Source of the DNA: a virus
Direction: 5' to 3' (one strand)
IMG/VR virus record: IMGVR_UViG_3300018080_000099
Location: 64,001 to 128,000 of that record
DNA: 64,000 bases
Shown: piece by piece, positions 27,014 to 29,447 of the stretch
Position numbering within the stretch: position 1 is the stretch's first letter
Layout of the letters: the number at the start of each line of letters is the position of its first letter
Made by a program: the position numbers and the translations under genes
Notes under the pieces: generated by a model
Told to the model about the DNA's origin: nothing
The model's database searches: none
Seen by the model: the letters and a program-made list of their open reading frames with translations, nothing else

Positions 27014-27724
27014 GTGAACCAAAGTGTACTAGACATACTTCGCTCAGAACAATTCCTGAATTACTTTGTAAAAAGAACGGAGCTTGCCTGCTCAAAAACC
27101 TTTTGGAGACTGTGTGAACGGAAGCAATCATTTCGCAGTGTGATTAAAGGTACCGAGGATGCAAAGGCTCAGCTAACGAGGTCAAACAGGATTAGTGTTC
27201 GTGTAGGCGAAGAATTCGAAGAAGAAATCTGTCCTGCCCTTAGGAACTGTCATGTAAGGTGCAAGCACATTGATAACGCCATCGGTGACATCTCCATCCA
27301 AGGGCAAATCTGGGAGATAAAGACTTCCAAACACAATCCCGACATCAAAAGCAAAACATACTCCCTCCAAGGCGCAACACACTCCTCGTCCAAAACATCC
27401 AGCTACATCTTCATCCGGTACGAACTAGATTTCGATAAAAGGCTTCGGTTCAAAAGCAAACCGAACAACATCATAAAGGGACTACACTTTTCTGTCCACA
27501 ACGGGATTGTTCTGCCTGAGTACTGGCACGGCGAAGCCAATGGCAGTAACAGCCGAACAACATTGCAAGTTCCAAAAGAAGTATTCGATGACTTTCAACA
27601 TGGAGTCATTTATGGTTCGTTGAGGGCGGCAAGAAAGTATCTCCAATTCCATACCGCACCATTCAACTTGACAGAGTACACACGAAGGGTTAATGCCCTT
27701 CCTGACATCTTGGGGATAAAATGA
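27014..27724 (+). CDS. putative type II restriction endonuclease (PD-(D/E)xK candidate) upstream of two methyltransferases
   Basis: IGDISIQGQIWEIKTS fits D...EIK; gene order R-M1-M2 with overlapping stops and starts. Confidence 0.45.
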   Translation: MNQSVLDILRSEQFLNYFVKRTELACSKTFWRLCERKQSFRSVIKGTEDAKAQLTRSNRISVRVGEEFEEEICPALRNCHVRCKHIDNAIGDISIQGQIWEIKTSKHNPDIKSKTYSLQGATHSSSKTSSYIFIRYELDFDKRLRFKSKPNNIIKGLHFSVHNGIVLPEYWHGEANGSNSRTTLQVPKEVFDDFQHGVIYGSLRAARKYLQFHTAPFNLTEYTRRVNALPDILGIK

Positions 27725-28659
27725 AAATAGACGAACTGATTTGTGGGAACAATGTCGAAGTCCTTAACAAGTTTAGGGACGAATGTATAGACTTAACCGT
27801 GACATCTCCGCCTTATGACTTGATTCGGAAGTATAAGGGAGCCGTGATGGACACCGGACACAACGGCTACTCATTCCCATTTGAGCCTTTGGCAGACCAA
27901 CTCTACCGTGTTACTAAGCAGGGTGGAGTCGTTGTATGGGTTGTCAACGACGGAACGGATAAGGATGGCTCTGAAACCGGCAACAGCTTCCGTCAGGCTC
28001 TTTACTTCAAGTCGCTCGGATTCAACATCCACGATACCATGTTCTATGAGAAGAACGGTCCTAACCATCCCGACACAAACAGATACTACCAAACTGTGGA
28101 GTACATGTTTGTCCTGTCAAAAGGGAAACCCAAAACAATTCGACTGATTAATGACAGAGCTAACAAATGGGTGGGGAACTGGGGAACCAAGACGATTCGT
28201 GACGGTGAGGACAAACTCAAAGCTCAGAAGAAATATGAGAACAGCTTTCACGGAGTCCGGTTCCATCTGTGGAGATACTTCACCGGCAAGGGATATTCCA
28301 CCAAGGATGAAATTGCTTTTGAGCATCCTGCAATCTTCCCAGAGGAGCTTGCCCGGGACCACATCCTTTCATGGAGTAATGTCGGTGATGTGGTGCTTGA
28401 CCCATTCATTGGCTCAGGTACAACCGCAAAGATGGCAATGATTCACCGTAGACACTACATTGGCATTGACATCAATCGGGAGTATGTTGACTTGACACGC
28501 AGGAGACTTGCTCTCCACTCAAACGACCTTGATTTAGATACCGAATATTCCGATGAAGCTTTCATTGAAAGTATCAAAGAGGAAGCCAAGATAAAAGAAA
28601 TCAAGAAGCAATCCGAAGAAGATTTGGATGCTGAAAACACATTGTCGGAGCTATTTTGA
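27721..28659 (+). CDS. DNA methyltransferase, beta-class N6A/N4C (SPPY before FxGxG)
   Basis: IDLTVTSPPYD near the N-terminus; LDPFIGSGTTAKMA near the C-terminus. Confidence 0.85.
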   Translation: MKIDELICGNNVEVLNKFRDECIDLTVTSPPYDLIRKYKGAVMDTGHNGYSFPFEPLADQLYRVTKQGGVVVWVVNDGTDKDGSETGNSFRQALYFKSLGFNIHDTMFYEKNGPNHPDTNRYYQTVEYMFVLSKGKPKTIRLINDRANKWVGNWGTKTIRDGEDKLKAQKKYENSFHGVRFHLWRYFTGKGYSTKDEIAFEHPAIFPEELARDHILSWSNVGDVVLDPFIGSGTTAKMAMIHRRHYIGIDINREYVDLTRRRLALHSNDLDLDTEYSDEAFIESIKEEAKIKEIKKQSEEDLDAENTLSELF

Positions 28660-29447
28660 AAGAACTAAGATACTGCTTACACAATGCCGATGTCATGGCG
28701 GGCTTTGAGTGTTCTCCTGACGAGAGTGTGGGCTTGATTGTCACGAGTCCTCCGTACAATGTCGGCATTGAGTATGACTCATGGAACGATGTGATGCCAC
28801 GACAGTCATACTTGGCGTGGTGTGAAATGTGGCTTAAAGAATGCTATCGTGTTTTGAAGCCTGACGGCCGAATTGCCATTAACATTCCATTCGAAGCTAA
28901 TATGATTAAAAGTGGTGATGGTCGAGTCATGATTGTATCTGACTACTGGCACATCATGGAGAAAATCGGTTTCAAGCTCTTTGGACTTATCCGATTGGAA
29001 GAAAAACAAGCTGAGCGAAGCAAGTTCACGGCTTGGGGTTCTTACATGTCGCCTTCATGTCCTTACATCTACAATCCCGATGAGTGTGTCATCTTGGCTT
29101 ACAAGGAACTACCGAAGAAAATCACACAGGGAGAAACGGACTTGACAAAGGAAGAGTTCGTAGAGTATGTTAGTGGGGTATGGAAATACAAGGCAGAAAC
29201 CAAGGGACTGACAATGGCGAACTTCAGCCTTGACATCCCGATGAAAGCAATCAAAATTCTGTCATTCAAAAAGGACACTGTGCTTGACCCATTCATGGGA
29301 AGTGGCACAACCGGAGTCGCATGTATGTTGCTTGACAGGTACTTCATTGGATTTGAAATCAGTCCAAGGTACCATGCAATAGCTGAGGACAGAATACAGT
29401 ATGCTGTTGACAGAGGCAATTGTGCCTTAGGGGAGTTGTTCGAATGA
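28656..29447 (+). CDS. DNA methyltransferase, beta-class (second)
   Basis: GLIVTSPPYNVGIEYD; LDPFMGSGTTGVAC. Confidence 0.85.
   Translation: MKELRYCLHNADVMAGFECSPDESVGLIVTSPPYNVGIEYDSWNDVMPRQSYLAWCEMWLKECYRVLKPDGRIAINIPFEANMIKSGDGRVMIVSDYWHIMEKIGFKLFGLIRLEEKQAERSKFTAWGSYMSPSCPYIYNPDECVILAYKELPKKITQGETDLTKEEFVEYVSGVWKYKAETKGLTMANFSLDIPMKAIKILSFKKDTVLDPFMGSGTTGVACMLLDRYFIGFEISPRYHAIAEDRIQYAVDRGNCALGELFE

Follow-up and report, generated by a model that had tools for sequence, protein, structure and literature searches.

When a nuclease-like gene stands directly ahead of two DNA methyltransferase genes in a phage, which of the three belong together, and do they amount to a restriction–modification (R-M) system? 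The question is raised by positions 27014–29447 of a 64,000-nucleotide stretch of viral DNA (IMG/VR record IMGVR_UViG_3300018080_000099, positions 64,001 to 128,000), which was analysed at its full length and is called the window here. An earlier note, made from the sequence alone, had proposed a candidate complete type II R-M module with two methyltransferases at this locus, and a related third methyltransferase elsewhere in the window. The first two genes, designated X and M1, are probably an orthodox type II R-M pair carried by a large phage, with the remaining methylases, M2 and M3, being extra, solitary enzymes. The proposed module thus stands for X and M1, by virtue of the predicted fold and a conserved linkage, but a place for M2 in it is not supported. 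This reading is based directly on gene structure, the predicted fold of X, its conserved catalytic motif, the linkage of X with a methylase, and the divergence of M1 and M3 in the target-recognition domain (TRD), and from these we infer enzymatic activity, a specificity common to X and M1, N4-methylcytosine (m4C) chemistry, oligomeric state and cleavage target. The features concerned are as follows.

26959..26988, plus strand: promoter-like site, TTGACA-18 nt-TATATT, within the 60 nt of intergenic sequence ahead of X (consensus match only)
27014..27724, plus strand: X, predicted type II restriction endonuclease, 236 amino acids, PD-(D/E)xK fold, EcoRV/NaeI/ThaI branch
27721..28659, plus strand: M1, beta-class DNA methyltransferase, 312 amino acids, TSPPY motif IV (PF01555, E 1e-43)
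28656..29447, plus strand: M2, second beta-class DNA methyltransferase, 263 amino acids, TSPPY (PF01555, E 1.4e-38)
45762..46697, minus strand: M3, paralog of M1, 311 amino acids, TSPPY (PF01555, E 2.8e-42)

All four open reading frames (ORFs) lie where they had been placed, and an independent gene caller run on the source contig agreed on X, M1 and M2 (236, 312 and 263 amino acids). X starts with a GTG codon at 27014 and has a GAGG ribosome-binding site 5 nt ahead of it. The promoter-like site is the top sigma-70-like match in 26400–30900 (11/12) and falls within the only intergenic gap of that region. X (27014–27724) and M1 (27721–28659) are separately encoded, adjacent genes with a 4-nt overlap, and the stop and start codons meet as ATGA between X and M1, TTGA between M1 and M2, and ATGA between M2 and the next ORF (29444). 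The overlapping stops and starts remarked on earlier in the three genes are therefore real, though not peculiar to the trio: the overlaps extend to 29444–29860 downstream and are also found upstream, at 26019–26636 and 26636–26953. Since the identical type of overlap joins unrelated flanking genes on both sides, it is a general feature of this string of genes, and was rejected as the mark of an operon or of a three-gene unit.

Sequence family and predicted fold of X

The X protein had no match in Pfam, NCBIfam, PHROGs, PADLOC, the sequences of the PDB or plasmids. Among 5.8 billion proteins searched by word index there were 10 relatives, each annotated only as "hypothetical protein", and when 1.84 billion cluster representatives were searched exhaustively with a profile, the family came to 113 clusters, the complete members of which are 200–260 amino acids long. 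Seven residues (E69, D92, W100, E101, K103, T104 and S105) are invariant in the 10 closest relatives. Among 64 diverse members, which are 14–36% identical to X, D92 is still invariant and E101, K103, G120 and K127 are conserved in at least 90%, so that the D...EIK signature first seen in the 236-amino-acid protein proved to be a property of the family. When these 64 members were compared with Pfam, there were scattered single-member matches (best E 0.0011) and no family common to more than one of them; their joint profile found none of the PDB sequences at E<=10.

An AlphaFold model of X, built on the alignment, is a confident one (mean per-residue confidence, pLDDT, 83.3; predicted template-modelling score, pTM, 0.83). 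In it, E69 is located in a long helix (residues 50–78), D92 heads the strand 93–95, and E101-x-K103 lies in the strand 98–106. As modelled, this is the canonical PD-(D/E)xK arrangement, and E69, D92, E101 and K103 are the putative catalytic residues. The top 13 structure matches of the model are restriction or homing endonucleases throughout: NaeI (score 10.0; PDB 1ev7), ThaI (8.5; PDB 3ndh), NhoI (6.9), BglI (6.7), EcoRV (6.1), DpnI (5.8), Eco15I (5.8), NlaIV (5.7), I-Ssp6803I (5.1), BcnI (5.0), SwaI (5.0), MspI (4.9) and SfiI (4.9). Foldseek ranked EcoRV first, weakly (E 5e-3), and the best matches in a viral structure library were unnamed phage proteins (TM 0.73). The earlier assignment of the 27014 product to the PD-(D/E)xK nucleases is supported by both the predicted fold and these nuclease matches. 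The modelled fold is that of a restriction endonuclease, with a resemblance to EcoRV, NaeI and ThaI at the level of the fold only. Taken with the absence of any Pfam or PDB sequence match, this means that the family is undescribed at the sequence level, and by its sequence X belongs to no described family.

A nuclease of this fold might still serve some purpose other than classical restriction. The candidates are a methylation-directed enzyme like NhoI, DpnI or Eco15I, a methylase-associated nickase for repair, such as Vsr or MutH, and a nuclease for homing or for degrading host DNA, with a specificity unmatched to that of M1. NhoI, DpnI and Eco15I are indeed among the 13 structure matches, which are headed by NaeI and ThaI; we regard these alternatives together as improbable, given the company that X homologs keep (see below). 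It is very improbable that X is an inactive remnant and the three methylases merely solitary anti-restriction enzymes. The overwhelmingly solitary state of M1-type methylases, with thousands of homologs versus 113 X clusters, and the 77 cultured-phage records that bear M1-type homologs annotated only as methylases would suit such a remnant, but X is full length, has all of its presumed catalytic residues intact, is preceded by a good Shine–Dalgarno sequence and the promoter-like site, and is 45–61% identical to full-length orthologs on other phage contigs.

Methylases that accompany X, and those that do not

The strongest functional evidence is the gene neighborhood of the X family. A methylase or methylase-like gene adjoins X in 12 of 13 sampled lineages, drawn from phage-like contigs, DPANN archaea and Mollicutes-like contigs, and the partners are of three methylase kinds in several gene orientations. 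The phage and DPANN partners are PF01555 enzymes, to which the methyltransferase-like partner in the Mollicutes-like contigs is unrelated. At the level of gene content, such pairing is characteristic of a restriction enzyme with its cognate methylase, and it is because the linkage is conserved across lineages that X and M1 are taken to be a type II R-M pair. In the related phage-like contigs, an M1-type methylase overlaps X (L001/L010, 63% identity to M1; L016/17, 55%; L020, 67%; L021, 59%). In the marine contigs L005–7 and L009, the gene abutting X encodes a TSPPY methylase from a clade other than that of M1. This marine clade also supplies the partner in two DPANN archaeal metagenome-assembled genomes (L011 and L012), where X and a single TSPPY methylase gene are convergent. 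In both of the archaeal genomes a RadC-like gene, read from the sequence, comes after the methylase.

In three low-GC contigs that use genetic code 4, X stands beside one conserved protein of 350–430 amino acids, the orientation of which varies (divergent, tandem-downstream and tandem-upstream-overlapping). Its genes are located as follows.

L004, ~1890-3180, minus strand: Mollicutes-like X partner
L008, 2227-3432: Mollicutes-like X partner
L014, 1953-3011: Mollicutes-like X partner

This partner had no match in Pfam or the PDB sequences and a weak one to the PADLOC model MTase_II (E 4e-5). Three of its motifs, DLFGGG, LCQSFS and IENP, resemble by eye motifs I, IV and VI of C5-cytosine methylases, and the sequence is methyltransferase-like, with the C5-cytosine class unproven. 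Next to this gene in L008 is a GmrSD/HNH type IV restriction gene. The sole exception to the pairing is Synechococcus phage DSL-LC02, the X homolog of which has no adjacent methylase. DSL-LC02 (L013; OR032571.1) is a cultured T4-like cyanophage of the Kyanoviridae, in which the X-family member is a "hypothetical protein" (3815–4471; WJZ48236.1) with an intact D...EIK; the gene after it encodes a weak ParB_N/GmrSD_N-like protein.

Which of the methylases in the window is the partner of X? M1, M2 and M3 all have TSPPY (residues ~28–32) ahead of FxGSGT (near 229–234), the beta-class order, and together with the PF01555 matches this confirms the two SPPY ... FxGxG beta-class enzymes described behind X. 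The two are only 24% identical, M2 being from a different subfamily, and their best PADLOC matches are oMTase PDLC03714 for M1 (E 3.6e-93) and MTase_II PDLC03353 for M2. M1-type orthologs (55–67% identity) directly follow the X homologs in L001/L010, L016, L020 and L021, and the central region of M1 (e.g., KWVG...TGKGYSTKD) is common to those of L001, L016, L020 and L021. From this position and co-inheritance we infer that M1 is the cognate methylase of X.

The distribution of M2 is a different matter. M2-type genes occur near X and M1 only in the window, in L001/L010 (60% identity) and in L005 (34%). Genes resembling a phosphoribosyltransferase and an IMPDH/FMN-dehydrogenase lie between M1 and the M2-type gene in L001/L010, and two small ORFs separate the M2-type gene from X and M1 in L005. 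There is no M2-type gene next to X in L016, L020, L021, L011 or L012. L019 has two M2-type genes (61% and 49% identity) with an M1 ortholog (64% identity) and no X. In that contig, the overlapping slot upstream of the M1 ortholog (2273–3004) is occupied by an unrelated protein of 243 amino acids without a match to the X-family profile, and the nuclease may have been replaced there by a different one.

These observations bear on the proposal that X, M1 and M2 form one three-gene R-M system in need of both methylases, either with the strands of an asymmetric site divided between them, which was the suggestion of the earlier note, or with one for double-stranded and the other for single-stranded or incoming DNA, in the manner of DpnII and BcnI. 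Such a system is unlikely. The adjacency of the three genes in the window is what it would predict, but the five contigs without M2 have a single methylase, two unrelated genes intervene in L001/L010, and in L019 there are M2-type genes beside an M1 ortholog but no X. The start–stop overlaps run on into unrelated flanking genes and mark no functional unit. X itself is a 236-amino-acid single-domain protein without a second subunit, from a family of 200–260-amino-acid enzymes with NaeI, ThaI and EcoRV as the closest folds, and no second nuclease-like gene was found in the module from the ORF list and a Pfam scan. The best structural matches of X are palindrome-cutting enzymes. It is thus the patchy distribution of M2 and the small, single-domain nature of X that disfavor two methylases serving one asymmetric site. 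Most likely, M2 is a protective methylase in its own right, additional to M1, and a looser association with the module of X and M1 is possible.

The third methylase, M3, had been described as almost identical to M1 across most motifs and as either a recent duplication or an orphan protective enzyme. The likeness is restricted to the motif blocks, as the two proteins are 52% identical overall and diverge most in the usual place of the TRD in beta-class enzymes.

M1 residues 1–135, motifs IV–VIII: M1 versus M3 64%; M1 versus the L001 ortholog 70%
M1 residues 136–195, usual place of the TRD: M1 versus M3 27%, gapped; M1 versus the L001 ortholog 53%
M1 residues 196–265, AdoMet binding: M1 versus M3 59%; M1 versus the L001 ortholog 79%

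An origin of M3 by recent duplication was rejected on the overall identity and the diverged target-recognition region. The best PADLOC match of M3 is again oMTase PDLC03714 (E 3.4e-78), and its neighbors are a DUF488-N3a protein, a RimK-type ATP-grasp protein and a 121-amino-acid ORF, the last without a Pfam match at E<=1. No nuclease-like gene was found beside M3, in agreement with the orphan option. Judged by its sequence and surroundings, M3 is probably a solitary protective methylase with a specificity different from that of M1. The genes that flank it, 45336–45701 and 46901–47245 (both minus strand), are the 121-amino-acid ORF and the DUF488-N3a protein (E 3.6e-7), and a "DH...N" pattern, HNH-like by eye, can be discerned in the 121-amino-acid ORF.

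As to chemistry, the methylases have structures of the N4-cytosine methyltransferase N4CMT (8s9m and 8s9n) among their top matches in the PDB sequences. SPPY is motif IV of N4CMT, a structurally characterised N4-cytosine enzyme, whereas the adenine enzyme CcrM has DPPY (PMC10406627), and S/DPPY/F has been given as a hallmark of N4C enzymes (PMC6712171). The occurrence of SPPY in all three methylases and of N4CMT among the best matches suggests m4C as the likelier, predicted product of M1, M2 and M3. Homologs are labelled "adenine-specific" in the source annotations.

Proposed mechanism, site avoidance and known systems

As an orthodox pair, X and M1 could operate in the following manner. X would be a small Mg2+-dependent PD-(D/E)xK endonuclease, probably a homodimer, directed at a short, probably palindromic, cytosine-containing site. 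Both genes would probably be expressed from one transcript, with M1 translated by way of the ATGA overlap, and M1 would methylate the X site, probably at the N4 position of cytosine. This methylation would make the phage DNA resistant to X both in the virion and when newly replicated, and unmodified DNA in the infected cell, be it the host chromosome, co-infecting phages or plasmids, would be cut. Type II enzymes do not normally cut hemimethylated daughter DNA; with virion DNA also arriving methylated, a controller protein would be unneeded. M2 and M3, with other specificities, together with an extreme avoidance of sites, would protect the phage genome from host restriction.

That avoidance is evident from the window itself. 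GATC does not occur at all in positions 1–64000, where 272 copies are expected, and CCWGG occurs twice against 105 expected. Fourteen palindromic hexamers are absent (AGATCT, ATCGAT, CGATCG, CTCGAG, CTGCAG, GAGCTC, GATATC, GCATGC, GCTAGC, GGATCC, GTGCAC, TACGTA, TCTAGA and TGATCA). The ratio of observed to expected counts (O/E) is below 0.25 for 27 of the 64 palindromic hexamers versus 110 of the 4,032 non-palindromic ones (2.7%), with medians of 0.46 and 0.96, respectively. Avoiding such sites is a strategy known from phages, and the non-temperate ones show it most strongly (PMC6286503). No such avoidance, the lack of GATC included, was seen in the related loci of X and M1; the GATC absence is therefore peculiar to this phage and no property of the X family. 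Several cytosine-containing palindromes are not avoided, namely GTAC (O/E 1.5), AGCT (1.3), CAGCTG (1.54), AGCGCT (1.65), AAGCTT (1.6) and TTCGAA (1.73), and it is a matter of speculation that these are candidate methylase-protected sites. The k-mer statistics of the window identified no recognition site for X and M1, as a site protected by M1 is indistinguishable among the non-avoided ones.

How does this pair compare with systems already known? With NaeI, ThaI and the EcoRV-like branch (EcoRV, BglI, NlaIV, SwaI, HincII and PvuII), X shares the fold at an identity of only ~10%, and it is without the second (Topo) domain present in the 295-residue chain of NaeI. The orthodox type II systems with N4-cytosine beta-class methylases, such as PvuII (M.PvuII, PDB 1boo), likewise have separate, small restriction and modification genes, the latter also of the beta-class PF01555 type with an S-P-P-aromatic motif IV. 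Unlike these, the locus of X and M1 has no controller (C) protein gene, its order is restriction gene then modification gene with translational coupling, and its carrier is a large, lytic-looking phage in place of a cell or plasmid. Type II systems with two methylases include DpnII, BcnI and type IIS enzymes such as MboII. In those, two methylase genes adjoin one nuclease gene, as in the window, but M2 is not consistently co-inherited with X, and X is small and single-domain. Solitary phage methyltransferases are a fitting category for M3 and probably for M2; M1 differs in being coupled to a nuclease gene, so that the label "orphan" is wrong for at least some of this family.

There are precedents for virus-encoded R-M systems, among them R.CviAII/M.CviAII and relatives in the chloroviruses and EcoP1I in phage P1. 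There too the virus encodes a nuclease and a protecting methylase, although the enzyme families are unrelated to those of X and M1. The proposed use is the same, with host or competitor DNA degraded and the virus's own DNA modified. The same general idea has been put forward for jumbo phages by Iyer et al. (PMC7824862). A tentative extension is that a lytic jumbo phage wields X offensively against the DNA of its host or of rival phages, its own M1-methylated and site-depleted DNA being spared, in which case the very numerous "orphan" M1-type methylases of phages could in part be remnants or partners of such modules.

What is new here is a small, uncharacterised family of predicted restriction enzymes; the type II R-M design borne by a jumbo phage is ordinary, and the overall understanding of type II R-M systems stays as it was. 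If X is active, it would define a small restriction-endonuclease family of ~113 clusters that has no model in Pfam, NCBIfam, PHROGs or PADLOC and spans phages, DPANN archaea and Mollicutes-like bacteria, and present defence-system finders would overlook such R-M pairs and call their methylases "orphan". With X active, this large and apparently lytic phage, rich in tRNA genes, would also possess both members of an R-M pair, which bears on host DNA degradation or competitor exclusion. For enzyme discovery X is a candidate for a new specificity, and its recognition sequence may be one not yet available among characterised enzymes.

Source of the window and neighboring genes

The window sits in a metagenomic contig of 263,805 bp (ENA ERZ27256796, k141_2651556), and a contig of 264,037 bp encodes a protein identical to M1. 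No near-identical counterpart of the region was found among 50,697 deposited phage genome records. The source is most likely a jumbo phage of ~264 kb without a cultured close relative.

The R-M genes are located within a cluster of RNA- and translation-related genes (24909–32209 and 36988–38460 of the window). The neighbors include the following.

24047–24577: HNH_3 endonuclease
24909–25391: YqeY-like gene, RNA/translation cluster
26019–26636: HD_4 domain, RNA/translation cluster
29836–30465: SpoU-family methylase, RNA/translation cluster
30860–32209: RtcB-like ORF, read from the sequence (Pfam calls RtcB in the related L001)
within 36988–38460: 490-amino-acid protein, phage homologs annotated "RNA-binding protein / DUF2828"

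Between M2 and the SpoU gene is a cysteine-rich ORF of 138 amino acids (29444–29860) with no family match, which is ATGA-coupled to the stop of M2 and overlaps the start of the SpoU gene.

The GC content of the window is ~44%, and it has 47 tRNA genes, 46 of which form a minus-strand array (47442–63912). The lone plus-strand tRNA, at 34202–34278, has a CUA (amber-reading) anticodon and was called tRNA-Pyl by ARAGORN, and TAG is the least used stop codon among the long ORFs of the window (6/55); amber suppression or recoding is conceivable. Near 34 kb (window ~34000), both the coding strand and the GC and AT skews change sign, the genes being on the plus strand before this point and on the minus strand after it.

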